Source: an uncultured Candidatus Saccharibacteria bacterium
Lineage (GTDB): Bacteria; Patescibacteriota; Minisyncoccia; Phycocordibacterales; EsbW-18
Length of the DNA: 64,000 nucleotides
Assembly: GCA_964478705.1 (NCBI GenBank)
Contig: CAYZIR010000005.1
Coordinates: forward strand, 508-64,507
Reading direction: 5' to 3'
The position numbers and the translations under genes are program-made. The notes beneath the pieces were generated by a model that was given only the letters and a program-made list of their open reading frames with translations, was not told the origin of the DNA and searched no databases. Of the stretch, positions 1,420 through 63,096 are shown in pieces. How positions within the stretch are numbered: position 1 is the first letter of the stretch; every line of letters starts with the position of its first letter.

Positions 1420-1535
1420 ATAAAAGACACCCCAAAGACATTTTGTGAGACATTACTATCCACACCTTATACACAATGACTTTTTGAATGCAAAAAGTTT
1501 TTGTTCCCGAAAAAAATAGCGCCTGCCGTGGTATT

Positions 1536-3653
1536 ATGATTTTTATGATTCCCGATAAATTCCTGAAACCGTACAATCCGAAAGAAACCGAACCGGCTAT
1601 ATACAAAATCTGGGAGGAAAGTGACTATTTCAATCCCGACAATCTTCCCTCAGAAAACAAGGAGACGTTCACGATTATCATGCCTCCACCAAACGCCAAC
1701 GGCTCGCTCCACGCGGGTCATGCGGTGTTTGTGACCATTGAAGACTTGATTATTCGTTTTGAGCGTATGCGTGGAAAACGTGCGTTGTGGCTTCCTGGTG
1801 CGGATCATGCGGGATTTGAGACACAGGTGGTATACGAGAAGAAACTTGAAAAAGAAGGGCGAACCCGTTTTGGCATGGATCCGAAACAATTGCGTGAGGA
1901 AATCATGGAATTTACGCTCGCAAACAAATCATTCATGGAAGGCCAGCTACGCCAGCTCGGTGCATCGTGCGATTGGGGTCGCGAGAAATTCACGCTTGAT
2001 CCCGACATCATCAATATTGTCTACGATACGTTTGAAACTCTCCATAAGGACGGGCTGGTTTACCGTGGCAAAAAAAGCATCAACTGGTGCACAAAGCACC
2101 AAACCTCTCTCTCTGAACTTGAAACGAAGAGTGAGGAACGTGTCGATCCGCTCTACTACATGAAGTACGGACCGTTTGTCCTTGCAACCGTTCGCCCGGA
2201 AACAAAATTCGGTGACACCGCACTTGCAGTGCATCCCGATGATGCTCGGTACAAAGAATGGATTGGAAAAGAAATTGAGTTTGAGGGATTGATTGGCCCT
2301 GTGAAGCTTAAAGTGATTGCTGATGAGTACGTCGATCCTGCATTCGGTACCGGTGTCGTTAAGATCACGCCTGCTCACGACCCCAACGACTTTGCAATGG
2401 CACAACGCCACGATCTTCCTATTGTTGAAGTAATCGACCAGTATGGAAAGCTCAACGAGAAATGTGGAAAATATGCGGGGCTCAAAGTCGAAGAGGCGCG
2501 GGCAATCATCGCGCAAGATCTCGAAGCTGCGGGCATGCTTGAAAAAGTAGATGCTGAATACAGACACAGTGTGAAGAAGTGCTACAAATGTGAACGTATT
2601 CTTGAACCGCGCGTCCTCCCACAGTGGTTTGTGAATATGAAGCCACTCGCCGAGCCAGTCATTAAGGCGATTGAGCGCGATGAAATCACCTTCTATCCTG
2701 ACCACTATAAAAAGATCATGCTCCACTGGCTGACAAATATTGAAGATTGGAATGTTTCTCGCCAGATTGCATGGGGAATCCCGATTCCTGCATGGTACAA
2801 GGGAGACGAAGTGTGTATCAGCAAAGAAAGACCAAACGGAGATGGTTGGGTCGCTGAAACAGACACTTTCGATACCTGGTTCTCCTCGGGCCAGTGGCCG
2901 TTCGCAGTCCTCGGCTATCCAGAGAATGCGGATTATAAGAACTTCTACCCAACCCAGGTGATGGAGACCGCAGGAGAGATTATCTTTTTCTGGGTCGCAC
3001 GTATGCTTATGTTCGGTCTCTATCGCACCGGCAAACTCCCCTTCTCAACCGTGTACCTCCACGGTATCGTCACCGCAAAAGACGGTCAAAAGATGAGCAA
3101 GAGTAAAGGTAATGTCATTAGCCCGCTTGAGCTCTCTGACAAATATGGCACTGACGCCCTTCGCATGGGACTCACCATCGGCAACACACCTGGGACAACC
3201 ACTGCGCTCTACGAAGACAAAATCAAGGCGTATAAGCTTTTCTCGAATAAACTCTGGAACATTACCCGTTTCGTGCTTGAAAACACTGACAGCATGCCCG
3301 ACACAACGTCAGTCGATACACCAAGCGATACCGCGCGTCGAAATGAACTCGCGACACTCGTACAGGAAGTGACGACAGACATTGAAAACTATCGCTTCTA
3401 CATGGCGGGAGAAAAACTCTATCATTACGTCTGGCACACATTTGCGGACGATATCATCGAAGAGAGTAAATCGATTCTGAAGGGAGAAGATATCCCCGCA
3501 CGCGATTCCCGAAAGGCGCTCCTTATTGATATCCTGAAGACATCGCTGGCACTGTTGCATCCGTTTATGCCCTTCATTACCGAAGAGATTTGGGGACACA
3601 TGCCGGGAACAAATGGAAATCTCTTGATGATTTCGCCGTGGCCTCGCGCATAA
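1536..3653 (+). CDS. valS: Valyl-tRNA synthetase (short form without C-terminal coiled coil)
   Basis: PPPNANGSLHAGHA (HIGH-type) and KMSKSKGN motifs; ValRS-like editing/CP1 region. Start moved to ATG 1536 (MIFMIPDKF..) rather than 1488. Confidence 0.88.
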   Translation: MIFMIPDKFLKPYNPKETEPAIYKIWEESDYFNPDNLPSENKETFTIIMPPPNANGSLHAGHAVFVTIEDLIIRFERMRGKRALWLPGADHAGFETQVVYEKKLEKEGRTRFGMDPKQLREEIMEFTLANKSFMEGQLRQLGASCDWGREKFTLDPDIINIVYDTFETLHKDGLVYRGKKSINWCTKHQTSLSELETKSEERVDPLYYMKYGPFVLATVRPETKFGDTALAVHPDDARYKEWIGKEIEFEGLIGPVKLKVIADEYVDPAFGTGVVKITPAHDPNDFAMAQRHDLPIVEVIDQYGKLNEKCGKYAGLKVEEARAIIAQDLEAAGMLEKVDAEYRHSVKKCYKCERILEPRVLPQWFVNMKPLAEPVIKAIERDEITFYPDHYKKIMLHWLTNIEDWNVSRQIAWGIPIPAWYKGDEVCISKERPNGDGWVAETDTFDTWFSSGQWPFAVLGYPENADYKNFYPTQVMETAGEIIFFWVARMLMFGLYRTGKLPFSTVYLHGIVTAKDGQKMSKSKGNVISPLELSDKYGTDALRMGLTIGNTPGTTTALYEDKIKAYKLFSNKLWNITRFVLENTDSMPDTTSVDTPSDTARRNELATLVQEVTTDIENYRFYMAGEKLYHYVWHTFADDIIEESKSILKGEDIPARDSRKALLIDILKTSLALLHPFMPFITEEIWGHMPGTNGNLLMISPWPRA

Positions 3654-7474: not shown

Positions 7475-9270
7475 TTTCCGGAGCCTCCTTTCACCATCTG
7501 CAGAAACACATCGTGCGGAATGTTGACTTTCCCGCGCTCGAGCATTTTTTTCTTTCCTTTCTTCTGTTTTTCAAGAAGCTTCATTTTACGCGTAATATCT
7601 CCTCCATACAGATACCCCGTAACGTCTTTTCGCATCGCAGAAAGACTCTCAGATGCAATGATACGCCCCTTTGCTTTTGCCTGAATTTTTGTAACAAACA
7701 ATTGACGCGGAAGGACATCGTGTAACTTTGTCACCGCTTTCTTTGCCTCTTCTTCAACGATACGATTCGCTACAACGCGCGCAAAGGCCGGAACAGGCTC
7801 ATCAGCGACAAGAATATCGAGACGAACAACATCGGCATCACGAAGCCCTGTGAGTTCATACGAAATCGAGGCATATCCTGAGGTAACGCTCTTCAAGCGA
7901 TCAAAAAACCCACGCATCAGCTCTCGGAGTGGCATCGAGATGGAGAATGAGATGCGACCATCACGAAATGTTTTTGAGTCATCAACACTCGCCTCAAAAT
8001 CATAGAACGCTTGCATGAGCTGACTCATGTACTCAGGTGGAGCAATCAGATGCGCCGAGACCCACGGCTCACGGATTTTGACTGTTTGCCCGTCGTCAGG
8101 AAAAAGTGCCGGCGAGTAAATCATCTCTGTTCTTCCGTCGCGATAGGTCACTTCATAGGTAATTGAGGGGGATGTCACAACCAACGAAAGGTCGGACTCT
8201 CGCCTCAACCGTTCCGTCACAATTTCAAGGTGAAGCATTCCAAGGAACCCACAACGAAAACCGCGACCAAGTGTTCCTGATGATTCTTCTTCGTACGAGA
8301 GTGATGAGTCAGAAAGGCGAAGCTTCTCAAGTGCAAGACGCAAGAAATGCAAATCATCTTGCCCTTCTGGAAACACGCTCGCCCACACTACCGGCTTGGG
8401 TTGTTGATACCCAGGCAATGCCGGAGCAGGATCTTTGACGAGCGTAAGTGTATCACCGACGGAAACGATACCTGGCTTTTTGATACCGGTCACGATGTAG
8501 CCGATCTCTCCTGCGGTCAGAGAATCCATCTCTTTTTCTTGCGGAACGAGTACACCAACATCACCAACAATAAAATCTTCATGCGCCGCGAGAAAACGAA
8601 CTTTTTCTTTTGCCGATATTGATCCACTTTCCATACGAGCATGAACGATGATGCCTCGATGGTTCGAGTACGTGAAGTCAAACACAAGCGCCTGCGTCTT
8701 TCCTGCTTCTCCAACGTGTGGTGCAGGAATTCGTTCGATGATTGCAGAGAGAAGTTCCTCAACCCCCTCCCCCGTTCTCCCAGAAACTTTGAGCACCGAC
8801 TCCGGAGGACAATCCAACAGATCAACGATTTCAAGCAAAATATCATCCGCACGAGCGAGCGGAGAGTCGATTTTTGACAGCACGGGGATAATCACAAGCC
8901 CCTGCTCGCGAGCCATACCAAGCGTGGTAAGCGTTTGCGCCTGCACACCCTGAGTAGCGTCCACCAAGAGAATCGTGCCTTCTACAGCCTTCAGCGCCCG
9001 CGAGACCTCATATGAGAAGTCGATGTGCCCCGGAGTGTCAATAAGGTTCAGAACGTAGCTTGTAGCGTGTAGCGTGTAGTCCATTCGGACAGGGGCCATC
9101 TTAATAGTGATACCGCGCTCACGCTCCAAATCCATCGAGTCGAGGACCTGGTCCTTCATTTGGCGTCTATCAATCGTCTTGGTGTGCTCCAAAAGACGGT
9201 CGGCCAAGGTGGATTTACCGTGGTCAATGTGGGCGATTATGGAAAAGTTTCGGATGTTTTTGACGTCCAT
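7471..9270 (-). CDS. lepA: Elongation factor 4 (LepA)
   Basis: N-terminal GTPase (AHIDHGKST), EF-G-like domains, characteristic LepA C-terminal domain. Confidence 0.95.
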   Translation of the reverse strand: MDVKNIRNFSIIAHIDHGKSTLADRLLEHTKTIDRRQMKDQVLDSMDLERERGITIKMAPVRMDYTLHATSYVLNLIDTPGHIDFSYEVSRALKAVEGTILLVDATQGVQAQTLTTLGMAREQGLVIIPVLSKIDSPLARADDILLEIVDLLDCPPESVLKVSGRTGEGVEELLSAIIERIPAPHVGEAGKTQALVFDFTYSNHRGIIVHARMESGSISAKEKVRFLAAHEDFIVGDVGVLVPQEKEMDSLTAGEIGYIVTGIKKPGIVSVGDTLTLVKDPAPALPGYQQPKPVVWASVFPEGQDDLHFLRLALEKLRLSDSSLSYEEESSGTLGRGFRCGFLGMLHLEIVTERLRRESDLSLVVTSPSITYEVTYRDGRTEMIYSPALFPDDGQTVKIREPWVSAHLIAPPEYMSQLMQAFYDFEASVDDSKTFRDGRISFSISMPLRELMRGFFDRLKSVTSGYASISYELTGLRDADVVRLDILVADEPVPAFARVVANRIVEEEAKKAVTKLHDVLPRQLFVTKIQAKAKGRIIASESLSAMRKDVTGYLYGGDITRKMKLLEKQKKGKKKMLERGKVNIPHDVFLQMVKGGSGN

Positions 9271-16287: not shown

Positions 16288-16358
16288 CGGGCCCACGAGG
16301 AATCGAACCTCGACCTTCTCTTTTGGAGAGAGAAATTCTACCTTTAAACTATAGGCCC
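16288..16358 (-). tRNA. tRNA-Trp (anticodon CCA)
   Basis: GGGCCTA acceptor, loop CTCCAAA, TTCGATT T-loop; 3' end ..GGGCCCGCA (CCA not encoded). Confidence 0.85.
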
Positions 16359-16801
16359 TTGGTTTCGTATCCGAAACGCCAGTGTTTTCCTACACGTGCG
16401 GTTTTACGACGATGACAATTTGCACACCTCACATCACATTTTCCTATCTCATTCATTATCTCAGCTACAGAATAACTGTGCCGGAACATTTGAGAGATAG
16501 GGAGTCGTTTATCGGAGCGATGGTCGAAGTCTAGCACAACAATATCGTCTTCTCCACAGTCAATACAAGGATTCGCTTGAAGGTGTCGGAATATCACTTC
16601 CCTCAATACCTGCCTTTGTTTCTTGTTCCATTTCTTCGCTTTTTTAATATATTTTGTACGGTTTGCTTTATAATGGTCTTTTCTGTAGAGAGCATGACAG
16701 CTTTTACAAACATAGTGTCGTAAACCTTTATCTGCATCCTTCCAATTGAAATCATTCTCTTTCTTTCCTTCTTTGCATGTAGCACAAATCTTTGATTTCA
16801 T
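16349..16801 (-). CDS. Free-standing HNH endonuclease with N-terminal Cys4 zinc finger; its last four codons overlap the first 10 nt of tRNA-Trp
   Basis: CIDCGEDDIVVLDFDHRSDK...CDVRCANCHRRKT (HNH/His-Me finger); N-terminal CATCKEG..CKSCH. Final codons AAG GGC CTA TAG coincide with tRNA-Trp nt 1-10 on the same strand. Confidence 0.7.
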   Translation of the reverse strand: MKSKICATCKEGKKENDFNWKDADKGLRHYVCKSCHALYRKDHYKANRTKYIKKAKKWNKKQRQVLREVIFRHLQANPCIDCGEDDIVVLDFDHRSDKRLPISQMFRHSYSVAEIMNEIGKCDVRCANCHRRKTARVGKHWRFGYETKGL

Positions 16802-16814
16802 CTTTTTATTGTAA

Positions 16815-16850
16815 ATAAAAATACTCCAAATGGAATTCCATTTGGAGTAT
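16815..16850 (-). terminator. 36-bp perfect palindrome (bidirectional terminator) between rpmG and the HNH gene
   Basis: AAAATACTCCAAATGGAATTCCATTTGGAGTATTTT. Confidence 0.6.
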
Positions 16851-16868
16851 TTTTATGAAATCTTTATC

Positions 16869-17562: not shown

Positions 17563-17568
17563 AAAATA

Positions 17569-17607
17569 ACAAACAACCTACAACAAACAACCTACAACAA
17601 ACAACCC
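17569..17607 (-). repeat. GGTTGT-type tandem repeat directly abutting the tRNA-Tyr 5' end
   Basis: tRNA sense strand: GGGTTGTTTGTTGTAGGTTGTTTGTTGTAGGTTGTTTGTTATTTTGC then tRNA. Same motif upstream of tRNA-Leu(TAG) at 25285..25323. Confidence 0.7.
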
Positions 17608-17619
17608 GAAAAAGCAAAA

Positions 17620-20343
17620 TTATACGTGCGTTTTTTCTTTACTCATTCGCGTATGACCAGCGGTTTTTGCACGAGACGCTTTCCCTTTTTTCGTCAGCGT
17701 AAAGGTAATGTCATCCTCGCCGTTTTCGAGCTTCTGCACATCAATTGAAACACTGCCTCCTTCAAGAATTCCACGTGAGACCATCAATTGCGCAACTTTG
17801 GTGAGAATTTTGTCCTGAATAAGACGCTTCAACGGTCGTGCACCATAGGTCGGATTATATCCGGCTTTCGCCAGATAATCGATTGCGCCGTCCGATACAA
17901 CAAGGTCGATTTCTTTTTCGGTAAGACGCTTGGTGACGTTCGCAAGCTGGATTTCAACGATTTTACGAATCGCGTCGTGAGGAAGAATGTTGAAGAAAAC
18001 AATTTCATCCAGACGATTGAGAAATTCTGGTCGGAATTGATCACGAAGCGCTTCCATGACTTTATCGCGAACATTGCCATATGACTGCTCGCTCGTATCA
18101 CTCGAGCCAAAGCCAATGCCATGCATACGGTCGATATATTGAGCACCAACGTTTGATGTCATGACGATGATTGCATTCTTGAAGTTCACCGTGCGACCTT
18201 TTGCATCGGTCAAACGACCATCATCAAGCACCTGCAACAGGACGTTGAACACATCAGGGTGCGCTTTTTCGATTTCATCAAAGAGGATGACTGAATATGG
18301 GCGGTGGCGAACAAGCTCAGCAATCGTGCCACCTTCTTCATGCCCGACATAACCCGGAGGCGCACCGATAACTTTCGATACCGAATGCTTCTCCATGAAT
18401 TCAGACATATCGACGCGAACGAGTGCTTTCTCGTCATCAAACATGAACTCCGCGAGTGCTTTTGCGAGCTCGGTTTTTCCAACACCGGTTGAGCCAAGGA
18501 ACATGAATGAACCGATCGGTCGGTTTGGATCTGAAATGCCAGCGCGCGAACGCTTGACCGCATTGGCAATTTTTTCAATCGCTTCATCCTGTCCAACAAC
18601 ACGCTTCTTCAACTCTTCTTCCATACGAGAAAGTTTTTCTGCCTCCCCTTCCAGCATGCGTGAGACAGGAATACCCGTCCAGCGTGCGACGATGTCAGCA
18701 ATATCTTCTTCACCGACTTCCTCTTTCAAAATTCGACGAGATTTTTGCAAACGTTTCAATCGTGTATTTTTTGTTTCAAGATCACGTTCAAGCGTCGGAA
18801 TCTTTCCATATCGGATTTCCGCTGCACGAGCGAGGTCGGCCGTCACTTCAGCGGCTTCAGCATCGAGTCGTGCACGCTCGAGCTGTTTCTTAATGTCTTT
18901 AATTTCACTGATTGTCTCTTTTTCGTTCTTCCACTTCAATTCGATTTCTGAGACAGCCTCTTTCAAATCAGCAATTTCTTTTTCAATCGTCTTCGTGCGA
19001 GTTTTTGCCTTTGTTGATTTGTCATCTTTTCCTCCCGCTTCATGCTTGAGTGCCTCTCGCTCAATCTCGAGCATCATAATTTTTCGATGCGTTTCTTCGA
19101 GAATTGGAGGCTTATTCTCAAGCGAGATGCGGAGCGCTGATGACGCTTCATCAATCAAGTCAACAGCTTTGTCTGGTAGAAAACGATCTGTGATGTATCG
19201 GGCTGAGAGGTTCACCGCGGAGATAATCGCATCGTCAGTTATCTTTACCCCATGGTAGAGCTCGTATTTTTCTTTGAGCCCACGGAGAATAGCAACCGCA
19301 TCATCAATGGTCGGTTCATTCACATACACGGGCTGGAACCGGCGTGTCAGTGCTGGATCTTTTTCAATATGACGTTGATATTCTTTAAGAGTTGTTGCAC
19401 CGATCGCGCGAAGCTCTCCACGAGCAAGCGCGGGCTTGAGCATATTCGAAGCATCCATCGCACCTTCTGCAGCTCCAGCGCCAACAATCGTGTGAATTTC
19501 GTCGATAAAGAGAATAATTGATCCGTTTGATTTCTCGACTTCTTTCACGATTGCTTTCAAGCGCTCTTCAAACTCACCGCGGTATTTTGTGCCCGCAATA
19601 AGCGAGCCGAGATCGAGCGATACAAGGTCTTTGTCTTTGAGCGACTCGGGTATGTCCCCACTGGCGATACGCTGTGCGAGTCCTTCGACCACAGCGGTTT
19701 TTCCAACGCCAGCCTCTCCGATAAGAATCGGATTGTTTTTGGTGCGACGAGAGAGAATTTGGATGATGCGCTGAATTTCCTTACTTCGTCCAATCACCGG
19801 ATCGAGTTTATTCTCTTTCGCCATCTGCGTGAGACTGCGTGTGTATCGTGCGATTGCTCGAGGTTTTTTACCAACGCCTCCATGATCAGTTGTGGTGCGC
19901 TCGCGAAGCTCGCGCAATACTTCAAGCACGTGCTCTTTCTCAATCTTGAATTGCGAAAGAATTTCTTTTGAGTCACCTGGAATATCGAGCGATGCAATGA
20001 ACAAGTGTTCTGTTGAAACAATCTTATCTGAAAGCATCGATGCGACATGCGTTGAATACTCGAGTGCTTTTGCTAGCTCAGGAGTAAGAAACATTTGGTA
20101 TGACGGAGACACCGTTGCGCCCTGATCAGGGTCTTCGAGTGCGTCGACAAAAGCATCGGTGAGAGCAATGGTATCGACTTCAAGTTTGTCGAGAATTGAA
20201 GCAACCATGCTCTCTTCCTGCAAAATGAGCGCTGTGAGCAAATGGATGATATTGACGTGACTCTGCCCACGCTCAAGAGCAAGCTCGTGCGCCTTTTTAA
20301 TCGCTTCCTTCGCTTTGGTTGTGAAATTCTTGAATGGAGACAT
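17620..20343 (-). CDS. clpB: Chaperone ClpB (two AAA+ modules and middle coiled coil)
   Basis: Clp N domain, two Walker A/B modules (GEAGVGKT; GSTGVGKT), long M-domain coiled coil. Confidence 0.95.
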
Positions 20344-20399
20344 AGTAGTGTGCTATCGCCGATAACAAAATATCACATATATTATGCGTTCGTCAAGCT

Positions 20400-21167
20400 C
20401 TACTCCCCTGCGCTTTCGCGGAGCGTCAGGAATACATCACTCCCGACATCTTCAGGCATCCCAACGATAGCCCCGGCAAGGTCAATCAATGGCGTTCCAA
20501 GGGGGATAGCAACACCGTTGATACTTGCACGAAGTCGTGAAGACACTGTGTTGATGCCAGACGGTATGAGCTCTGCGATGACGCCAGGCGCTATTTTTGT
20601 TGAAGCATCACCATAGAGCGCGATGACGCTTTGACCAAGAACGAGATTGTCGAACGGAGAAAATGCCGCGGGAGAGAGTGCTGGGAGAGGTTCGTTTGTT
20701 TTGCTTTCAAGACGGAAGAAACCTTGCTCTGTATCTGTTTCCGATGGATTCGCTTCGAGTTCTGTGCCATCAGAGAGTATTGCAACGTATCGTTCTCGGG
20801 AATCAACAATACGACGATCAGCAACAACAACGCCTTCTGCAGAAACAATCACGCCCATTCCCCGAAACTCAAGATTATTCTTGCCTTCAATCGTATAGAT
20901 TCGAACGATAGATTTTTTTGCGATATCAACAGCCTTTGCGACTTGTTCGCCCTCGGAGACAATCACTGTGCGTTCCTCAACAACTGTTTGTCCGCCAGTA
21001 ATGTTTTCGATTGGTTGTTCGATGATTCTGCTAATGACACGCGTCACATCGGTCGGTGCTTTTTCCATCAACGATACCGTTGCGATACCGGTCGCAATCG
21101 AAGTGACGAATGACACAAGGAGTGTCAGGAGAATGATCTGTGTTTTGTTCAAGCGTTCCAGATCCAT
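20400..21167 (-). CDS. Membrane-anchored trypsin-like (HtrA/S1C-like) domain protein, probably catalytically inactive
   Basis: Aligns to the HtrA core but the His position reads ADRRIV and the GNSGG Ser motif is replaced by AIPLGTPLIDLAG. Confidence 0.4.
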   Translation of the reverse strand: MDLERLNKTQIILLTLLVSFVTSIATGIATVSLMEKAPTDVTRVISRIIEQPIENITGGQTVVEERTVIVSEGEQVAKAVDIAKKSIVRIYTIEGKNNLEFRGMGVIVSAEGVVVADRRIVDSRERYVAILSDGTELEANPSETDTEQGFFRLESKTNEPLPALSPAAFSPFDNLVLGQSVIALYGDASTKIAPGVIAELIPSGINTVSSRLRASINGVAIPLGTPLIDLAGAIVGMPEDVGSDVFLTLRESAGE

Positions 21168-21182
21168 AGTGGGGTCATTATA

Positions 21183-21381
21183 TCATGTAGCGCGAAACAT
21201 GTAACATGTAGCGTGCAACACAGAATACGGAGTACAGAGTACGGAACATAGAGTACGGAGTACAGAGTACGGAACATAGAGTACGGAGTACAGAGTACGG
21301 AACATAGAGTACGGAACACGGAGTACGGAGTATGGAAACTCCAAACTCATGTACGCGTTACATGTTACATGTTTCGCGCTA
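21183..21381. repeat. 25-bp perfect inverted repeat enclosing a 28-bp tandem repeat array
   Basis: CATGTAGCGCGAAACATGTAACATGTA (21183..21209) and its reverse complement TACATGTTACATGTTTCGCGCTACA (21357..21381). Between them AGAGTACGGAGTACAGAGTACGGAACAT occurs three times plus partials. Confidence 0.8.
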
Positions 21382-21401
21382 CACGCTCTGTGCTCTGTCT
21401 T

Positions 21402-22565
21402 CTACGATTTCACAATATCTGAAAGTGCACTTGCGAGTATATCGATCTCTTCGGTTGTCGTCTCACGACCAAATGAAATACGGAGAGCATTTCGTGCCCG
21501 CTCGGGAGCAATCGCCTGCACGACATATGATCCTTCACCATCAGCTGAAAGACATGCACTTTTTGCAGACACAGCAATTCCTACTGCGTCGAGACGGGCT
21601 GAAATATACTCACCGTCATGACCTGGGAATGCAATGTTGATGATGTTCGGTGCTGATGCTTCAAGAGAACCGTTGATAACAACCTCCGGAAAGCGCTCTT
21701 GCAGTCGTGCAACGCAATACTCTTTCAAATCTTTCCAACGCTGAGAATCGTCAGCACGACACTCTGCAACACGGTCAATCGCGCATCGTAAACCAATTGC
21801 ACGAGAAACGTCTGGCGTTCCTTCATGCGAACGAATCCCTTGTGTCCCGCACGGCGATATATACGAAATTCCGCTTCGCACAAACAAGAGCCCCGTCCGT
21901 TTTGGTCCGTATATCTTCTGTGCGTCAATGACAAGCAAGTCTGCACCTATGTCATGTGGCAGGACATGCTCCGTGGCGACCGCCTGACTCGCATCAACAA
22001 GCAAGTTCGGTCGAAATGTTGCTGACGCGTACCGTTCTGTAATGATGTGCGCAATATCACGCAACGGCTGTCGTGTACCTAGCTCATTGTTCACAAGCAT
22101 CACGCTCACGAGTATCGTCGTATCACGAAGTGACTCGCGCAATCGATTACAATCAATGATTCCCTCTGCTGTCACAGGCACAACAGAGAGCGCTACACCT
22201 CGACGGGTGAGTGCCTCAACACATGATCGAACGGCCGAGTGTTCTATCGCACTGATCACGATGTGCATATCGGTATAGCTCGCGCCTCGATCGAGCCGTG
22301 CAGTGACACTTCCAAGAATCGCGCGCGACAATGCATCCGTTGCACCGTTCGTCATGTGACACTCATGTGCTTTGACACCAAGGTGTCCTGCGATTGCAAA
22401 GCGTGCATCTTCAAGCGCCTGTTTTGCTTCTCGCCCACCAGCATGCGCTGAATGTGCATTTTCAAAGTGCACGTCGTCCCACGCGCGCATTGATTCCTTT
22501 ACCAACGGATCAAGTGGTGTCGCTGCTGCATAGTCAAGATAGATTCGTGATGACATGTGCTTCAT
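21402..22565 (-). CDS. Cysteine desulfurase (class V aminotransferase, IscS/NifS-like)
   Basis: PLP-dependent fold, SRIYLDYAAATPLDPLV N-terminus, active-site region SAKSACLS. Confidence 0.8.
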   Translation of the reverse strand: MKHMSSRIYLDYAAATPLDPLVKESMRAWDDVHFENAHSAHAGGREAKQALEDARFAIAGHLGVKAHECHMTNGATDALSRAILGSVTARLDRGASYTDMHIVISAIEHSAVRSCVEALTRRGVALSVVPVTAEGIIDCNRLRESLRDTTILVSVMLVNNELGTRQPLRDIAHIITERYASATFRPNLLVDASQAVATEHVLPHDIGADLLVIDAQKIYGPKRTGLLFVRSGISYISPCGTQGIRSHEGTPDVSRAIGLRCAIDRVAECRADDSQRWKDLKEYCVARLQERFPEVVINGSLEASAPNIINIAFPGHDGEYISARLDAVGIAVSAKSACLSADGEGSYVVQAIAPERARNALRISFGRETTTEEIDILASALSDIVKS

Positions 22566-22648
22566 TCTAGTGAGAAAGCGAATGCGGTCAATGAAACATT
22601 CCGAATAAAGAAAAAACGTGGTATAGTAGTACTCGTTCTCATAAAACT

Positions 22649-25284: not shown

Positions 25285-25323
25285 TTTGTTGTAGGTTGTC
25301 TGTTGTAGGTTGTTGGTTATTTC
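25285..25323 (+). repeat. GGTTGT-type tandem repeat abutting the tRNA-Leu(TAG) 5' end
   Basis: TTTGTTGTAGGTTGTCTGTTGTAGGTTGTTGGTTATTTC followed immediately by the tRNA. Confidence 0.7.
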
Positions 25324-27340: not shown

Positions 27341-27658
27341 TCAGAGTCCTTCTTCGATTTTCAATTCTTGCGTCCCCTGAAATTTGTTTTTTACATCGTC
27401 GTAGTTCGCTGGCTTGTCAGCACCAATCGTACCGATAATGATATTGATGATACCGAATACGGACACCATGATCACCATGCCAACCATTCCCCAGATGATG
27501 TTATTTCTCCCCTTCTCTCGACCGTCGTCGCTATCGCTGTTTCTAATGAATTCGATAACGCCCCATATGAAGATGATGACTGCAACTCCGAAGAGCGCGA
27601 ACAGTAAGGGCTCGAGAATCGAATCGTAGATACGAGCAAGAAGCTGATCAACGGTCAT
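27341..27658 (-). CDS. Pilin-like two-TM small protein, paralog 7 (no signal peptide)
   Basis: Core FIWGVIEF..DGREKGRNNIIWGMVGMVIMVSVFGII matches paralogs 1-6. Confidence 0.45.
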   Translation of the reverse strand: MTVDQLLARIYDSILEPLLFALFGVAVIIFIWGVIEFIRNSDSDDGREKGRNNIIWGMVGMVIMVSVFGIINIIIGTIGADKPANYDDVKNKFQGTQELKIEEGL

Positions 27659-27667
27659 GGACGTTGA

Positions 27668-28018
27668 TTATCGCTGAACGCCTGGAACAGGAAGTGAACC
27701 TCCTGTCTGAACATCAAACGCATTTGCAATGAATTTGACGAGACCAACAACGGCAACCATCACGAAGAGTGCGATGATACCGTAAATCATCAATTGCTTT
27801 CCTTCTGAACTCTTGTCCTCGTCGCCCTGTGCGAAGATGAACTTCACCAAACCCCAGAAGAATGCGAGAAGTGCCAAACCAACAACGATAGGTGTTGCAA
27901 GGTTTACCAATCGTCCGATTGCTTGCACAAGGTTCTCGATATTACCGAGTGACTGTGCGCTCGCAAGCGACGGAAGAAATGCGAATGCCGCAAGAGCGAG
28001 TACTGAATACTTTTTCAT
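27668..28018 (-). CDS. Pilin-like small secreted two-TM protein, paralog 6 (VirB2/TrbC-like topology)
   Basis: Signal peptide (..LASAQS), TM1 ..IVVGLALLAFFWGLVKFIFAQGD, charged loop, TM2 MIYGIIALFVMVAVVGLVKF. Confidence 0.5.
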   Translation of the reverse strand: MKKYSVLALAAFAFLPSLASAQSLGNIENLVQAIGRLVNLATPIVVGLALLAFFWGLVKFIFAQGDEDKSSEGKQLMIYGIIALFVMVAVVGLVKFIANAFDVQTGGSLPVPGVQR

Positions 28019-28099
28019 AGTGTTACTGTTTTTGAATCTAATTGCCTTTTATGGCCTTGTAATACGTATAAGTAAACCACGCTATCCCTAAACTATCAA

Positions 28100-28510
28100 T
28101 CAGCGGTTGTTGAAAGCTGGAATGGTCGGTGGAGGTAGCCCTTGGTTGTTCCCTTGATTGGTCTCATTAATGCCAACCGCACGCTGAAGGAAGCGAACGA
28201 TACCGAAGACTGAAAACATGACGAAAAGCGCAATAACACCGTACGTCATAAGCGTTCTTCCGGCCTCCTTCTCTTTTGGATCCCCTGCTTTGATGATGAA
28301 TTTGACCAATCCAAAGAAAAATACGAGGAGTGCGAGGGATGCGAGAATGCCAATAGCGATATTGATAATCGAAGTAATACCATCAAGTAAATTACAGAGC
28401 GTTGGATTGAGTGCTCCGGTACAATTTACGATTGCTGCGTCCACCGCAAACGGTGTGAGCATGAGTGCAAGAATACCGAGCCCGAAAGAAATTTTGATAT
28501 ATCGTTTCAT
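28100..28510 (-). CDS. Pilin-like small secreted two-TM protein, paralog 5
   Basis: ..FFFGLVKFIIKAGDPKEKEAGRTLMTYGVIALFVMFSVFGIVRF.. Confidence 0.5.
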   Translation of the reverse strand: MKRYIKISFGLGILALMLTPFAVDAAIVNCTGALNPTLCNLLDGITSIINIAIGILASLALLVFFFGLVKFIIKAGDPKEKEAGRTLMTYGVIALFVMFSVFGIVRFLQRAVGINETNQGNNQGLPPPTIPAFNNR

Positions 28511-28530
28511 ACAATAATGATACTAAGCGC

Positions 28531-28851
28531 TTAATTAGGTAATAGTGCGTTCTTAAGGAATTGTACGATGCCCCAGAACGAAAACAAGACAAACAACCCG
28601 AGAATACCGTAGCCCATCGTGCTTTTTGCACTCAGCTTCTTCTTCTCATCGCCTGCATACAAGATGTATTGCACAACCCCCCACATAAAGAAGAGCACCG
28701 CGAGCGACGAGAGGAGACCAATCAACGGGTTGACGAGCCCTGTAAACATTTCAATCAGTTGTTTGAGATTTTGTGGGGCACCCGCTGCCACCGCACTTAT
28801 CGGCAGTACTGCGCCAAGCACCATACCTATTCGAGGGAAAAATTGTTTCAT
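28531..28851 (-). CDS. Pilin-like small secreted two-TM protein, paralog 4
   Basis: ..LFFMWGVVQYILYAGDEKKKLSAKSTMGYGILGLFVLFSFWGIVQF.. Confidence 0.5.
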   Translation of the reverse strand: MKQFFPRIGMVLGAVLPISAVAAGAPQNLKQLIEMFTGLVNPLIGLLSSLAVLFFMWGVVQYILYAGDEKKKLSAKSTMGYGILGLFVLFSFWGIVQFLKNALLPN

Positions 28852-28855
28852 ATGA

Positions 28856-29263
28856 TTATTTGAGCACTTCTGTCTTTGGCGTCGGTTCTTTTTTTAGGTC
28901 GTCGACGGTTCCTTTAATGACATTGGCAAGTACTGTTGCACCAAGTAAAATCGCCGCCCCAATGACGGTGTAAAGAAATGATTCCTTCGCTTTCTTAAGC
29001 TCATCTTTATTACCCCGCGCCTTCACGAAGAGAAATCCTGAGTAAATGATGAAAATTGCAACAACATAGAATCCAATTTCTGCCACTTTTTCTGAAATCG
29101 CAATGATTGCGCCTCCAAGGTCGTCACAGTTTTCACATGCAAGCGGGTTCTCTATACCTTTTACCTCACCTGTTCCAACACCTCCCTGAGCAAAGACTGC
29201 AACAGGAATCATAATAAAAAGTGCAAGAACCAAGCCAAAAATATGTCGTTTATATGATTTCAT
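28856..29263 (-). CDS. Pilin-like small secreted two-TM protein, paralog 3
   Basis: Signal peptide ..AVFAQG; ..FYVVAIFIIYSGFLFVKARGNKDELKKAKESFLYTVIGAAILLGATVL.. Confidence 0.45.
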   Translation of the reverse strand: MKSYKRHIFGLVLALFIMIPVAVFAQGGVGTGEVKGIENPLACENCDDLGGAIIAISEKVAEIGFYVVAIFIIYSGFLFVKARGNKDELKKAKESFLYTVIGAAILLGATVLANVIKGTVDDLKKEPTPKTEVLK

Positions 29264-29690
29264 GAATACTATCTATTCTACCTTGTTTCTGAAAAACCTC
29301 ATCCACATCGGTATCCAAAAAGAAGTTCGTGAAGAGATTCACAATCAGCCACGCTGAAAATGTTATGGTAAGACCCCAAAATACATTCTGAAAGATCTTT
29401 TGTGCCTTACCTCGGTCTCCTGGGTTAGCGCTCGATGTTAGGTAGAGAAACCCTGCCCACGAGAAGAGAATTGCTGAGAGTGGAATCGCGATTGTCATCA
29501 AAAAATCAATGACGTTCTCGATGAGTGTTATAAAGTCAAGAAAATTACAATCCGGCCCTGCACATGGCACAAGGCCACCCGCACCAGGTATAGGATCCGC
29601 TGCCAAGACCGCCATCGGAACGAATATAAGACATATAAGCGCTATTGAGACCGCAATGCCACGGCAACGCATGTTCATATGCTCTTTCAT
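29250..29690 (-). CDS. Pilin-like small secreted two-TM protein, paralog 2
   Basis: Start reset to ATG 29690 (MKEHMNMRCRG..). Signal peptide ..AVLAADP; two TM with loop ..SSANPGDRGKAQK. Confidence 0.4.
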   Translation of the reverse strand: MKEHMNMRCRGIAVSIALICLIFVPMAVLAADPIPGAGGLVPCAGPDCNFLDFITLIENVIDFLMTIAIPLSAILFSWAGFLYLTSSANPGDRGKAQKIFQNVFWGLTITFSAWLIVNLFTNFFLDTDVDEVFQKQGRIDSIHEII

Positions 29691-29763
29691 ATATCCTTGC
29701 ATTGTATCGTAGAACATACGGTAACCACGCACGATAGAATCAAAAGAAGTGGACAACTGCCCT

Positions 29764-31059
29764 CTATCGGATCTCTGCACCCAAACGTGCTGACACATCC
29801 GCTACGGCGCGAGAAATCGAGAGACGCCCCGATGTGATATTGGCGACCATGTCAGAGAACGCCTTGTCTGTTTCAGACGAATTTGGGTCGAGAAATGCCG
29901 ATGCAATCAATGCTTCGTCGTAAAAAAGTGCTTGATAGGGGTCTTGAGGTTCACCAGCGAGCAAATCACGACGCACTGGAGGAAGATTCATCTTTTCGCT
30001 CCACAACGCCCCGGCGTCTGAGCCAGAGAGCAACGTCATGACACGAAAGGCACCCGCGACATTATCTGTCTGTTTTACGATAGCAATGCCATATATTCTT
30101 CCGAACGTTGTCACAAAGGAACTTTCACGAATCTGTGGAATGGCCGTCACATCGAAGTCGAGATTCGGATTTTTGTCACGGATTGCGAAGAGTTCGCTTG
30201 CAAAACCGAGGTACAGAGCAAGATCGCCTCGAATAAAGAAATCTTGGGAACGCGGAAGCGCTCTATTCCATGAGTAGAGTGGCTTAACGGGATTTGCAAA
30301 TTCCGTATAAAAACGAAGTGCAGAATCTGCTGGTGCCTCAGGAAGACCTAAGTCATCCGCGATGATGACACCTAAACGATTTCCTGCATCACGAAGCGTG
30401 ATAGGATTGCCCGCTTGCATGATTAAGGTTGCGATGATTTCTCGCGCATGATCAACGTTGCCGTATTCACCGAGTGCAATGACACTTTGGAGCACATTGA
30501 ACGAATCATCCACCTTAGTGAGTTTTGGATGGAAGTCGACAAGTTCATCCCAGAAGCGCGGTGGCTCAGGCAATCTCGCTGTATTCAATAACGTTCTGTT
30601 CCAGTACATCATCAGAGGATCGACGAGGATTGGAAGGCCGAGAATCCCATTCCGAGAGACAAAAATCTCTGATCCTTGTGTGTAGGTGTCACGAAAGAGG
30701 CGTTCGGTGATTGATTCAAACGGCACGGTGTAGAGCTTGTCTTCATACTCTGCAAGATGATCCCCTTGTACGATAATCGCATCGGGTCCGGTTCCTGATG
30801 CAAGGGCGTCAATCAACTCTTGCTTAAATTCGGCCTCCGAAAATGCCTCGTAGGTCACTTGTAGAGCACCACTCTGTGCTTCGTTGTATTTACTGACCAC
30901 TGAATTCACGATATCCGCTGGCAGGGTTCCCCAGACAATCGCTTCAGCAGGAACATCCTCACCACTACCGCCTGATTTACCGAACGTCGCAATAACAATA
31001 ACGCCGGCAACAATAAAAAAACCAAAAATACCGAGGAGTACTGACTGAAATGTACGCAT
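29764..31059 (-). CDS. Membrane-anchored extracellular solute-binding protein (ABC-transporter SBP family 1-like)
   Basis: N-terminal TM anchor then ~400-aa periplasmic-binding-protein fold; first gene of the minus-strand unit containing the pilin-like array. Confidence 0.55.
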   Translation of the reverse strand: MRTFQSVLLGIFGFFIVAGVIVIATFGKSGGSGEDVPAEAIVWGTLPADIVNSVVSKYNEAQSGALQVTYEAFSEAEFKQELIDALASGTGPDAIIVQGDHLAEYEDKLYTVPFESITERLFRDTYTQGSEIFVSRNGILGLPILVDPLMMYWNRTLLNTARLPEPPRFWDELVDFHPKLTKVDDSFNVLQSVIALGEYGNVDHAREIIATLIMQAGNPITLRDAGNRLGVIIADDLGLPEAPADSALRFYTEFANPVKPLYSWNRALPRSQDFFIRGDLALYLGFASELFAIRDKNPNLDFDVTAIPQIRESSFVTTFGRIYGIAIVKQTDNVAGAFRVMTLLSGSDAGALWSEKMNLPPVRRDLLAGEPQDPYQALFYDEALIASAFLDPNSSETDKAFSDMVANITSGRLSISRAVADVSARLGAEIR

Positions 31060-55556: not shown

Positions 55557-57950
55557 TTAGCGCACCTCCCATCCCTTTCCGCGAATCTCATCCTCAATCT
55601 TACCCATGATCTCACTCACCTCAACATCAGAGAGCGTTTTTTCGTTCGATTGAAAGACGATGTGATATGCGTATGATGTTCTTCCCTCTTTGGTGAATGT
55701 ATCGAAAAGATCCAACCGAGCAAGAAGTTTGCCAGCATGACTTTTGATGACGCCTTCGAGATCTTCTGAGCTGTTGGTTGTTGGTTGTTGGTTGTTGGTT
55801 CCCCCGACCCATACTGCAATGTCACGAAGGATAAAAGGATAGACCGAGATCGGCGCGAATGTCATGTTTGGCAAACGTGGCAAGTCGCCGTACGAGTCAG
55901 GAGTTGGAAGCGATTTGATCGTTTTTGAAAGGGATGCGGTGGCAATGTTTGCTCGCTTCATCCATACAAGCGGAGAAGTGGAGGTCGTCGTCACTGCTGC
56001 AATTGCAGCATCAAGATCTCTGCCCTTTTCTGTCGCAATCCCAATTTGTTGTTCCTCACCAGTCTTACTAAATATGGTGCCAATTTCGAAAATTCGTACA
56101 GCATCGACGCCAATGAGCGGCCTATTTTTTTGGTTGAGCTCAAGGGCAGCCTTTAAACCTTCTACGAGTGACGAACGAAGATATTTTTTATCATTAGCAA
56201 TCGGGTTCGCTACTTCAATTTCACCATCGTCTTGAAATGAGTATGTCGACACCTCGGAAAAGCCGGCATCAACAAGCGCTCGGCGGACGAGCGCTTTGTA
56301 GTATTCGTTCTTGTTGACCGCAGGTGTGAATCCGTCGAAAGGCAACGGTGTTGATGGAATCGATTCAAGACCTTTGAGCCGGCCGATTTCTTCGATCAAA
56401 TCTTCTTTGATACGGATGTCGATGCGCGGCGCGGGAACTGTCACCACAAAGCGTGGTTCGTTGTTCGTGATGATGCGACGATAGCCGACGATATTTTCAA
56501 ATGCCTTGGAACCAGAAAGATCTTCAATGACGACTTCGCCCTTATCCCATTTTCCTGATGCATGAAGGATTTTCCCTTCACCAAGATAGATGCCGTTGTG
56601 ATCGATACCTGCCGAGAGCTTTGTCCCTGCCATGAATTCATGCGAGACACTTGTCTGACGAACTTGGTCGATACCAAGACTTTCAATATGTTCTGTCGAT
56701 CCATCACCCTTTCGATCTGAGAATACGATGTCTCCCGCACGAAGATCATTTGCCTCAACCGGCGCACTAAAAACAAACTGATCAACAGCCATACGCGGAA
56801 TTGCGATTCCAGCTTGTGCGTAGAGATATGCGACCAAAGATGAGCAGTCGAAAGCTCTTGGCGCATCACTCAAAACACTTGCACCGTATTTGTATGGAGC
56901 GCCAACCAAGGTTGGAGCAAGTTTCAAAATCTGTTCAAGCGGCTGTATGTAGGTGTATTCAAAACCAAGACGCTTGAAGTAGTCTTCGACCTCACTTTGA
57001 GAACACGTCGTGCCGAGCGCTGTGTTAATTTCCGAAAGTGAGACGCCAACAACGTAGAGATTCTTTTTGTTTGGATACGACTCAACAATGTCTTGTGCGA
57101 CTTTTCCATTCGCGAGCTCTTCAATGAGTGCCGAAAGACGCTCCATAGCAATCGCAGTAAGTTCAGGACTGATTCCCTGCTCGAATCGGATTGACGCATC
57201 GGTGCGAAGTCCGAGCTTCTTTGATGTCTTGCGAATGTTTACGGGATCAAAATTGCAGACCGAAAGAACGATGCGTGTCGTGTTCGCATCAATACCCGAT
57301 GTCGAACCGCCTTTTACGCCAGCAATATCGAGTGCTTTCTCGCTGTCGCTGATAACAAGAACGTCTGGGTTCAGTACGAATTCCTTACCATCAAGGGTGG
57401 TGATTGTTTCATCTTCTTTTGCTGAACGTATTGAAAGAGCTGTTGGTTGTGAGTTGTTGGTTGTGAGTTTGTCATAGTCGAATGCGTGAACCGGCTGACC
57501 TGTTTCGAGCATCGTGAGGTTCGTTGCATCAACAACGTTGTTGATCGAACGCTGTCCGTGTGCAGCAAGTTTTATTTTGAGCCATTCGGGAGATTCGCCG
57601 ATTGTGACACCTTCGACATAGCGCTTCATTGCGCGTGGAACGAGCTTTGAGTTTTCGATGGTAAGCGAAAGATGATCGCTTGTTGAAATACCTGAGTCGG
57701 TTTTTGGATGAGCCTCAGGAATGTTTGCTGTGACATTGAGAAGCGCGGCGACTTCACGAGCGATACCGTGGTATGAAAAACCATCGTGGGAACGGTTTGG
57801 AAGCACTTTGATATCGAGAATCGTATCGCTGCCGTGTGACTCGGTTCCGTCGATTTCAAATGCATGCATCGTAATCGTGCGCGACAAATCAGCAACCGAT
57901 GGAAGCGGTTTGTCGAAATATTCCTGAAGCCATGCGTAGGAGAATTTCAT
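55557..57950 (-). CDS. pheT: Phenylalanyl-tRNA synthetase beta subunit carrying an inserted NlpC/P60 domain and two in-frame microsatellite insertions
   Basis: B1 and B3/4 (..PEWLKIKLAAHGQRSINNVVDATN..), B5 (..VEDYFKRLGF..), B6/7 (..VTVPAPRIDIRIKEDLIEEIGRLKG..), FDX-ACB C-terminus. aa ~340-490 (nt ~56481..56933) carry APYKYGAS..FDCSSLVAYLY..AGDIVFS..HNGIYLGEGKILHAS. Repeat-coded peptides TTNNSQPT (nt 57441..57464) and GGTNNQQPTTN (nt 55770..55802). Confidence 0.85.
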   Translation of the reverse strand: MKFSYAWLQEYFDKPLPSVADLSRTITMHAFEIDGTESHGSDTILDIKVLPNRSHDGFSYHGIAREVAALLNVTANIPEAHPKTDSGISTSDHLSLTIENSKLVPRAMKRYVEGVTIGESPEWLKIKLAAHGQRSINNVVDATNLTMLETGQPVHAFDYDKLTTNNSQPTALSIRSAKEDETITTLDGKEFVLNPDVLVISDSEKALDIAGVKGGSTSGIDANTTRIVLSVCNFDPVNIRKTSKKLGLRTDASIRFEQGISPELTAIAMERLSALIEELANGKVAQDIVESYPNKKNLYVVGVSLSEINTALGTTCSQSEVEDYFKRLGFEYTYIQPLEQILKLAPTLVGAPYKYGASVLSDAPRAFDCSSLVAYLYAQAGIAIPRMAVDQFVFSAPVEANDLRAGDIVFSDRKGDGSTEHIESLGIDQVRQTSVSHEFMAGTKLSAGIDHNGIYLGEGKILHASGKWDKGEVVIEDLSGSKAFENIVGYRRIITNNEPRFVVTVPAPRIDIRIKEDLIEEIGRLKGLESIPSTPLPFDGFTPAVNKNEYYKALVRRALVDAGFSEVSTYSFQDDGEIEVANPIANDKKYLRSSLVEGLKAALELNQKNRPLIGVDAVRIFEIGTIFSKTGEEQQIGIATEKGRDLDAAIAAVTTTSTSPLVWMKRANIATASLSKTIKSLPTPDSYGDLPRLPNMTFAPISVYPFILRDIAVWVGGTNNQQPTTNSSEDLEGVIKSHAGKLLARLDLFDTFTKEGRTSYAYHIVFQSNEKTLSDVEVSEIMGKIEDEIRGKGWEVR

Positions 57951-62050: not shown

Positions 62051-63025
62051 TTATTCTGTGTCTTCTTCGGACAAAGAACCGCCCCCTGCCTGTGAAAGTG
62101 CCGTTACTATTTTATCGATACCTCCTCCGAGAATTCCAGGAATATTCGACCAGCTCTCTTTGATGCGGTGGTCAGTGACACGGTCTTGCGGGAAGTTATA
62201 CGTGCGAATCTTTTCCGAACGATCCCCTGTTTTGATGAGGGTTTTTTGCTCGGTCGAGTCTTTCTTCATCTGTTCTTCCTCGTGCAGTGCCTCGAGTTTT
62301 GCTTGAAGGATTTCAAACGCCTTATCACGATTTCGCCCCTGACTTCGCTCTGACTGCGATTTCACGATGATGCCGGTTGGCTTGTGTACCAGTCGAACCG
62401 CAGTCTCCACTTTGTTCACGTTTTGCCCACCAGCACCACCCGAGCGCGTGAATTCCATTTCCACATCAGTCATGTTGATGGTAACGGTTTTTTTCTTGCG
62501 AATCGGGAGCACCACTACCGCAGCGGTTGATGTGTGAATACGACCAGATTTCTCGGTTGCTGGAATTCGCTGTACGCGATGTACCCCAGTTTCGAATTTA
62601 AGCTCAGCGTACACGCCTTTGCCACTGATTTCGAATGATGCGTCCTTGTAGCCACCCATAGTTGCACGTGACTCATCGAGCACAGTCACTCGCCAGCCTT
62701 TTATTTCTGCGTATTTTCGGTACATCATCGAGAGCTCCTCGGCAAACAGTGCTGCCTCTTCCCCGCCAGCACCCGCACGCACTTCGAGGATAATTTCGTT
62801 TGGCGACTCTTCATCAGCTTCATCTTCCTTCATAATCATCTCAATCTGTTCGGTCAACGCTTTTTCTTGGAGCTCAATGTTTTTGATATCGTCTTCCGCC
62901 AGTTCCGCAAGCGACGGATCATCCATGGCAGTCTTCTTGAGTGCCTCTTTTTCGCGCGAAAGACGCTCCAACTCTCCGGCGAAGTAGGCGGTTTTCTGAT
63001 TCTTTTTTAGAGCATCAAGATCCAT
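62051..63025 (-). CDS. prfA: Peptide chain release factor 1
   Basis: GGQ motif ([18 protein letters not shown]), PxT-class domain. Start at ATG 63025 (MDLDALKKN). Confidence 0.85.
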
Positions 63026-63096
63026 ATGTTTTTCATTATCATAGCAGGAATCCCGCCCCGCCCTCATATGAGGGCGGGGCGGGATAGAAACTGTAT

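Follow-up and report, generated by a model that had tools for sequence, protein, structure and literature searches.

BOX elements of Streptococcus pneumoniae have the structure boxA-boxB(n)-boxC, in which pairing termini enclose a variable number of tandem boxB modules, and they can stimulate or inhibit downstream genes (PMC3049150). Correia elements of Neisseria, which are MITEs (miniature inverted-repeat transposable elements), have inverted repeats of 26 bp, give rise to promoters and undergo cleavage by RNase III (PMC3049150). An intergenic element of approximately 198-200 bp, located between an aminotransferase gene and a serine protease gene, was distinguished in a 64,000-nt stretch (the window) of contig CAYZIR010000005.1 of an uncultured Candidatus Saccharibacteria bacterium, and it resembles both of these types. 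It is likened to BOX by layout, not by sequence: both are intergenic and non-coding, with paired termini and a tandem module placed between them, outside the stem. BOX elements, however, occur in more than 100 copies per genome and consist of 45-59-bp modules with termini unlike the internal module, whereas the element described here is present in a single copy, is built of a 7-bp base unit with a 28-bp higher-order unit, and has a proximal terminus that is itself part of the array. With Correia elements it shares inverted-repeat ends of about 26 bp, a length of 100-200 bp, TA ends, putative promoter creation and a predicted hairpin suited to RNase III. Correia elements differ in having hundreds of copies, clear TA duplications, an IHF site and no internal tandem array; in the present case, there is one copy, plus a solo half-site in another genome.

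Two further kinds of system are comparable in part. Putative mobile promoters are defined as stretches of >50 nt with at least 80% identity upstream of coding sequences that are not homologous (Matus-Garcia et al., 2012; PMC3488235). One arm of the element constitutes such a near-identical non-coding stretch upstream of non-homologous genes in different genomes (the protease gene here, and rodZ in L004, a metagenome-assembled genome (MAG) of Candidatus Moraniibacteriota), but the shared stretch is shorter than that definition demands (25 nt exact, or 38 nt at 89%), and the geometry in L004 is unfit for a simple promoter. The omega-binding arrays of pSM19035 are plasmid-borne, contain 7-10 heptads of the form WATCACW and lie beside the delta and omega genes (PMC9499535). 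The element resembles them in its gapless contiguous 7-bp units, direct and inverted, at or upstream of a (here putative) promoter; it differs in that its 26 YAYRKAR heptads are heterogeneous and chromosomal, and no gene for a cognate ribbon-helix-helix protein or ParA was seen close by. Contingency loci also have short tandem units upstream of promoters, an example being the 7-bp repeats of the H. influenzae hmw promoters, and the number of such units can change by slippage and thereby alter promoter geometry. In contrast to these, the array described here does not separate promoter elements but is located upstream of position -40, and an inverted repeat closes it. No described family accommodates the element, as Rfam, known mobile elements, plasmids and phages all gave no match. 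It is best called a composite inverted-repeat-plus-tandem intergenic repeat that is also a promoter-associated repeat, both of which are known kinds.

The element is a layered heptad array closed off by a second, inverted copy of its proximal end, and not an inverted repeat placed around an unrelated array. It consists of the following parts (positions in the window):

21186..21213: left (promoter-proximal) arm, with its perfect core at 21186-21210; it spans about -16 to -40 of the putative downstream promoter
21184..21337: heptad array, 22 direct heptads in one phase, consensus YAYRKAR; the left arm corresponds to heptads 1-4
21217..21329: most recent layer of the array, with 4.0 copies of a 28-bp unit (four heptads) at 94%, or, equivalently, 8.1 copies of a 14-bp unit
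21338..21355: turn that links the direct heptads with the inverted copy, recognized from the sequence, the folds and the heptad register
21327-21342: small internal hairpin formed by the turn and the last heptad, GGAGT-ATGGAA-ACTCC
21356..21383: right (distal) arm, with its perfect core at 21359-21383; an inverted copy of heptads 1-4
21355-21379: near-palindromic 25-mer at the right arm, CGCG-TT-ACATGT-T-ACATGT-TT-CGCG

The two arms are 28 nt long, 96% complementary (27/28) and separated by 142 nt (repeat search), and their perfect 25-nt core is TGTAGCGCGAAACATGTAACATGTA. A preliminary description of this DNA had reported a 25-bp perfect inverted repeat, which is exact for the 25-mer, while the 27-mer quoted there (beginning CATG) has one mismatch in its partner. 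The tandem array was resolved by Tandem Repeats Finder with a period of 28 (4.0 copies, 94% matches) or, equivalently, with a period of 14 (8.1 copies, 79%). The 28-bp unit, previously counted three times with additional partial units, was recovered as two exact copies and one copy with a single mismatch, besides partial units. Read from position 21184, the heptads are CATGTAG, CGCGAAA, CATGTAA, CATGTAG, CGTGCAA, CACAGAA, TACGGAG, TACAGAG, TACGGAA, CATAGAG and so on, to TATGGAA. Self-identity at lag 7 is 0.61 (21184-21400), compared with 0.13-0.33 at lags not divisible by 7, and at lag 28 it reaches 0.91 inside the array. The units grade from degenerate to perfect. The heptads of the left arm keep the phase of those in the array and merge gradually into them, and this arm is connected to the -10 region of the putative promoter by a sub-repeat of 21 nt.

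The statement that the element encodes nothing is essentially right, with the qualification that a 55-aa low-complexity open reading frame (ORF) runs through the array on the minus strand (21350..21183). A small protein was rejected, and the ORF judged spurious, because of its low complexity and the lack of a promoter-like site upstream of it. The array is not CRISPR-like, as had been noted, since its units stand head to tail without spacers. Integron attC, retron and CRISPR readings were likewise rejected: no integrase, reverse transcriptase or cas gene is located nearby, and the geometry is wrong.

The element fills most of the 234-bp spacer (stop codon to start codon) between two tandem minus-strand genes, the aminotransferase stop facing the right arm and the protease start facing the left arm. 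The preliminary description, which placed it between convergent gene ends, was mistaken on this point. The promoter and genes of the locus are:

21177..21205, minus strand: promoter-like site, with -35 GTTACA (21205..21200), a 17-nt spacer, TG (21185..21184) and -10 TATAAT (21182..21177)
22565..21402, minus strand: class-V aminotransferase, cysteine-desulfurase-like (upstream gene), identified from the ORF and Pfam PF00266 (E = 3.9e-51)
21404..21402, minus strand: aminotransferase stop codon, 18 nt from the right arm
20400..21167, minus strand: membrane-anchored S1C/trypsin-like serine protease (downstream gene), identified from the ORF, Pfam PF13365 (Trypsin_2) and orthologues; ATG at 21167..21165
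17620..20343, minus strand: clpB, next after the protease gene on the same strand, with a separate promoter-like site (20396..20367)

On the gene strand, the left arm ends exactly where an extended -10 box starts. The promoter scan of this strand found GTTACA-17-TGaTATAAT, which has 10/12 consensus matches plus the TG, and whose -10 hexamer ends 9 nt before the protease ATG. No -10 box follows the right arm on the plus strand. Many other genes of the window have TGnTATAMT 9-13 nt before the ATG, without a Shine-Dalgarno sequence. From this sequence arrangement we infer that the protease promoter is leaderless or nearly so, and that the left arm supplies its -35 hexamer.

A related observation was made at the aminotransferase gene (region 22554-22591), where the -10 sequence TAGAAT overlaps the first ATG (22565), and a second ATG (22556, MSSRIYLDY...) is located 7 nt past the -10. 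This second ATG is probably the true leaderless start of the aminotransferase.

The source bacterium is a member of the Patescibacteria of Paceibacteria type. Homologues of the protease are encoded in MAGs of Patescibacteria, Campbellbacteria, Kaiserbacteria and Paceibacterota, the best non-self match sharing 69% identity. Six relative loci (L006, L007, L008, L009, L012 and L013), with protease identities of 60-69% and five distinct spacers, were compared with the window. The gene order RbfA/IF-2 (divergent), aminotransferase (Aminotran_5), protease and ClpB is kept in five of them, and partly in L012. The aminotransferase-protease spacer measures 18 bp in L006 and L009, 41 bp in L013, 92 bp in L007 and L008, and 138 bp in L012, and in all six loci it lacks both the arm and the 28-bp unit. 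The element is therefore lineage-specific. The preliminary description had named a lack of conservation in close relatives as an outcome that would refute its reading, and this is what was found (0/6 relative loci carry the element). In five of the six aligned sequences, namely the window, L012, L013, L006 and L009, a -10 sequence TATAMT is located 8-9 nt before the protease ATG, within an otherwise unalignable spacer; in the four relatives it is a TATACT box 8 nt before the ATG.

The same spacer of the closest relative, L012, contains an unrelated 23-nt inverted repeat (96%) made of short tandem units, and the resulting hairpin (178-297; z = -6.5) ends 8 nt before the L012 -10 box. A hairpin with 47-nt arms, composed of A-rich heptads (z = -7.5), was also identified downstream of ftsK in a Moranbacteria contig (L016, 5346-5480). 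These two cases indicate that repeat-built hairpins, differing in sequence, arise repeatedly in spacers of Paceibacteria. The suggestion that heptad periodicity is a general habit of this genome was rejected, as the pooled spacers of the window have no lag-7 excess and 3/38 are periodic.

Matching contigs were found in Logan assemblies of three independent short-read runs, with 100% identity to the window up to position 21255 on the left (L001) and from position 21286 on the right (L002 and L003). These contigs end inside the array, so that their confirmation covers the arms and the array junctions, and not the number of 28-bp units. Since three independent assemblies reproduce both junctions at 100%, the arms and the array are not an assembly artefact. 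Even if the element should be slippage debris, it provides a useful warning that short-read MAG assemblies break at such a site.

Either strand of the element is predicted to fold into a 27-30-bp stem, with free energies of -80.4 and -84.2 kcal/mol (z = -7.1 and -7.3, respectively), which agrees with the long stem proposed earlier. Only RNA that reads through from the aminotransferase gene carries both arms, and the hairpin would therefore be absent from transcripts begun at the protease promoter. A comparison with Rfam 15 gave no match at the gathering score and only noise at E values up to 10 (E 4.6 and 8.4). Of the functions considered in the preliminary description, a protein-binding array and a structured RNA are possible.

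Neither the arm nor the unit has another copy in the 64-kb window (at most 3 mismatches each; shuffled sequences gave 0 matches), nor do the core palindrome (at most 2 mismatches) or a 22-mer (at most 5 mismatches). A scan of the GTDB representative genomes (596 Gb) with a 20-mer of the arm returned two matches, in L004 and L005. The first of these, at 5536-5560 of L004, is identical at 25/25 positions to the right arm (CGCGTTACATGTTACATGTTTCGCG), and the comparison with the left arm plus -10 box (window 21176-21213) gives 89% over 38 nt. The L004 module has the same 21-nt internal periodicity and is located directly 5' of a start codon. In L014, whose FtsK is 95% identical to that of L004, the same spacer carries the motif with one A>G change, and rodZ and then recA follow downstream. 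In L015 (78% FtsK identity), the motif is missing upstream of rodZ, and a different 21-nt (three-heptad) tandem occupies the same place. Among the databases scanned, the arm 25-mer thus recurs only 5' of rodZ-recA in two Moranbacteria MAGs (L004 and L014). It is near-palindromic, CGCG-WW-ACATGT-W-ACATGT-WW-CGCG, with 20/25 positions equal to those of its own reverse complement.

The match in L005 was dismissed as a chance one: it falls inside a Flavobacteriales coding region, without similarity past the seed, and we estimate that about one chance match is expected. The strict 25-mer gave 0 matches in JGI metagenomes. A looser 19-mer matched a JGI contig (L011), which was also attributed to chance, as nothing is shared beyond 19 nt and the match lies partly inside a coding 3' end. 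The arm and the unit gave 0 matches in IMG/VR, and blastn against plasmids and phages gave no match. A role of the element, which is rich in GTAC and ACATGT, as a restriction-modification decoy was rejected too: GTAC is not notably avoided outside it (observed/expected ratio of 0.82), and ACATGT is rare there (6 sites), but nothing further supports the idea. The rodZ-recA context in L014 prompted the idea of SOS control; the motif lacks the LexA sequence GAAC-N4-GTTC, and the idea is left as speculation.

The ftsK-rodZ spacer of Moranbacteria (L004 5440-5575, L014 1865-2000, L015 5310-5455) has a recurrent organization of its own. A conserved TATAAT is located right after the ftsK stop codon, and is followed by a terminator-like hairpin with a T-run and by a heptad/21-nt array abutting the rodZ start (ATG or TTG). 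This may be a leader or attenuator arrangement.

The best reading of these results, which we put forward tentatively and at somewhat less than even probability, is that the element is a composite repeat, expanded locally, that serves as the upstream half of a promoter and forms a hairpin in read-through RNA. Its seed would have been a short promoter-proximal module, GTTACATGTTACATGTTTCGCG-N5-TGATAWAAT, also present 5' of rodZ-recA in Moranbacteria, which would have grown through slipped-strand or unequal-recombination amplification and one inverted duplication. Growth in place is suggested because the arm is in phase with the array, a 21-nt repeat reaches into the -10 region, and no second copy was found. 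At the DNA level, the proximal arm would form positions -16 to -40 of an extended -10, leaderless-type promoter of the protease gene, with clpB following and with the -35 hexamer at the canonical distance of 17 nt. At the RNA level, read-through aminotransferase transcripts would fold into the 27-30-bp stem, which would mark or cut the 3' end of the message, acting either by pausing/termination or as a double-stranded RNA substrate of an RNase III-type enzyme. Such a hairpin would insulate the aminotransferase and protease transcription units from each other.

As Patescibacteria (the Candidate Phyla Radiation, CPR) are uncultivated, their promoters, transcript boundaries and regulators are, to our knowledge, almost entirely uncharacterized. 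If the locally expanded repeat does act in this way, a single self-amplifying 7-bp repeat would furnish a compact genome with both a transcript boundary and the upstream portion of a promoter, and a 25-nt promoter-proximal module could be common to different orders. The 25-mer and the heptad array offer a concrete, testable handle on CPR leaderless-type promoters, and they hint at a possible heptad-binding regulator.

Several observations weigh against a locally expanded repeat with these two roles. The promoter function is predicted from sequence, as a consensus match, and the scan returned 8 such sites in 2.4 kb, compared with 3.2 in shuffled sequences; moreover, an extended -10 promoter may work without the -35 hexamer of the arm. 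In both L004 and L014, the module lies flush against the start codon of rodZ, and its -10-like box, which in L004 overlaps that ATG, would put the transcription start inside the ORF; it is therefore not just a promoter in these two genomes. The predicted hairpin is not a canonical intrinsic terminator, a type that is used elsewhere in this genome: its loop is 142 nt long, there is no U-tract, UGAUAUAAUGA comes after the stem on the gene strand, and no terminator-like site was called in the spacer. The perfect identity of the arms is also compatible with recent transposition or with selection for protein binding. Finally, heptad periodicity was detected in only 3/38 spacers of the window, and pooled lag-7 identity is at background.

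Protein binding would provide a different explanation, which we regard as unlikely, albeit deserving of attention. The arms would be high-affinity operators of a dimeric regulator, or a heptad-binding protein would coat the run in the manner of omega/ParB of pSM19035, and stress genes would be under its control. One site, centred at about -33, would occlude the -35 hexamer, and the other, 163 bp upstream, would be an auxiliary or looping site. The 25-mer has features of an operator: 20/25 self-complementary positions, overlap with the -35 and spacer region, and 25/25 conservation between genomes of different orders at non-orthologous sites, both directly 5' of a start codon, and the single change in L014 (ACATGT to GCATGT) preserves RCATGY. 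The downstream operons at both sites contain stress or quality-control genes, and the element offers contiguous heptads, 22 direct and 4 inverted, without a break in phase; omega is documented to bind parS and operators in the form of 4 or more adjoining heptads whose orientations are mixed (PMC9499535). The heptads are, however, heterogeneous and not WATCACW, and the neighbours examined (aminotransferase, protease, ClpB, IF-2, DUF192 and T4SS pilins) included no gene for a ribbon-helix-helix protein or ParA. The centre-to-centre distance of 163 bp, equal to 15.5 turns of the helix, would put the two sites out of phase for a loop. Presumably, the 25-mer is also unlike the CIRCE, HAIR, CtsR and Gram-positive LexA boxes, which counts against an operator. 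Unlike the operator of a regulon, the motif is not found upstream of the orthologous protease/clpB in any relative or at rodZ of L015, and there is no further copy or near-copy in 64 kb. The two alternatives that dispense with a regulator, an imported mobile element and a functionless by-product, are each quite unlikely in our estimation. As a non-autonomous transposon of the Correia/BOX type, the element would carry outward -35 hexamers in its inverted repeats, form a hybrid promoter with a resident -10 and yield a hairpin that is a target of RNase III. Its 25-28-bp terminal inverted repeats, its length of about 198 bp, its non-coding and intergenic nature and its likeness to Correia and BOX elements (PMC3049150) fit this view, as do the absence of the element from the orthologous site in all relatives compared, the outward -35 placed 17 nt from a -10 that pre-exists in relatives, the recurrence of the arm sequence in a distant genome and the TA at both ends (TG-TA-GCGCG ... 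CGCGC-TA-CA). This TA, though, belongs to the palindrome (TGTA...TACA), so that a target-site duplication is not demonstrable; no direct repeat of greater length is present, and the spacers of the relatives have diverged too far for an empty site to be delimited. A transposon would also not be expected to have an imported end that shares the phase of the internal heptads and is akin to them, with a 21-nt repeat reaching to the flanking -10. Furthermore, the element is a single copy in 64 kb, no full or partial second copy was detected in GTDB representatives, JGI metagenomes, IMG/VR, plasmids or phages, the sole homologue is a solo half-site without a partner arm, and no transposase gene is adjacent here or in L004 and L014 (gene context was inspected, without a systematic search).

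Neutral slippage and template switching in a tolerant spacer would leave the extended -10 sufficient by itself and the hairpin without a role. The lineage-specific occurrence, spacers of 18-234 bp across the relatives, unrelated repeat-built hairpins in other spacers (L012 and L016) and array units that pass from degenerate to perfect, as is typical where turnover continues, all accord with such a by-product, and relatives manage with 18-bp spacers and no upstream element. On the other hand, 200 bp of inert DNA is unusual in small, tightly packed genomes, the arms are perfect over 25 bp while older heptads of the array have diverged, and the exact 25-mer is common to Moranbacteria MAGs, being kept with one change between L004 and L014 at 95% FtsK identity. 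We attach almost no credence to a chromosomal landmark (a dif/cer Xer site, terminus or origin) or an assembly artefact. The former had been considered in the preliminary description, and its only support is the impression given there by a long inverted repeat between genes; it did not withstand analysis. Cumulative GC skew keeps falling across 21 kb without a sign change, gene orientation does not switch at the site, the 234-bp spacer has neither a TTATCCACA-like DnaA box nor an AT-rich unwinding region (local GC of about 0.48), reading of the element revealed no dif-like 11-6-11 site or half-sites, and the relatives lack the element. An artefact is excluded, given the conserved synteny and the 100% identity of the three assemblies at the two junctions.

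A broader proposal, which we consider highly doubtful, is that heptad arrays 5' of transcription units constitute a cis-regulatory system of Paceibacteria read by a putative omega-like heptad-binding protein, and that the 25-mer is a mobile high-affinity operator wiring protease/clpB and rodZ-recA together. The loci behind it are the present element, the rodZ-recA module and the GTTGTAGGTTGTTT arrays before tRNA-Tyr and tRNA-Leu, which are shared with L007. Recurring heptad modules 5' of transcription units in Paceibacteria, one of them common to different orders, are more intriguing than a single locus, but the loci are few.

The GTTGTAGGTTGTTT arrays are tandem repeats of a 14-mer (two heptads), located in the window at 17564-17606, directly 5' of tRNA-Tyr (minus strand), and at 25287-25318, 5' of tRNA-Leu(tag) (plus strand). 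A nearly identical array precedes tRNA-Tyr in L007/L008 (63% protease identity; 8534-8571 in L007), and it is absent in L006, L009 and L013. The array may be a tRNA promoter module; in L007, TAGGTT is located 6 nt before the mature 5' end. Heptad tandems were also recorded inside long ORFs of the window: TGTTGGT repeated 4.1 times at 55772-55800, a 14-mer repeated 2.4 times at 57437-57469, and GTAGCGT repeated 3.6 times at 9055-9079.

Other repeats and sites of the window include: (i) about 8 copies of AGGACAT/AGACAT in both orientations at 1290-1480, including a 28-nt inverted repeat (1329-1356 / 1390-1417), with the DnaA-box-like sequences TATCCACA and TTATACACA at about 1458-1476, just upstream of a 721-aa ORF (1488..3653), a region that resembles a cluster of iterons, an origin or a cluster of operators; (ii) a perfect AT-rich palindrome (21+21 nt) at 16815-16856, upstream of the ORF 16349..16801; (iii) a perfect GC-rich palindrome with 20-nt arms (ATCCCGCCCCGCCCTCATAT / ATATGAGGGCGGGGCGGGAT) at 63050-63085, centred on a CATATG that contains the start codon of the ORF 62051..63067; and (iv) a tandem pilin array at 27341-29798, consisting of six consecutive small minus-strand genes, all of the T4SS_pilin family (PF18895). 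In the CPR-like JGI contig L011, the heptad AATTTGG is repeated 4.6 times (2405-2450) within a cob(I)alamin-adenosyltransferase-like ORF, and the adjacent spacer (2200-2265) contains a palindromic element resembling repetitive extragenic palindromic (REP) sequences, GTCATTCTGAGGGAGC...GGGATGAC.

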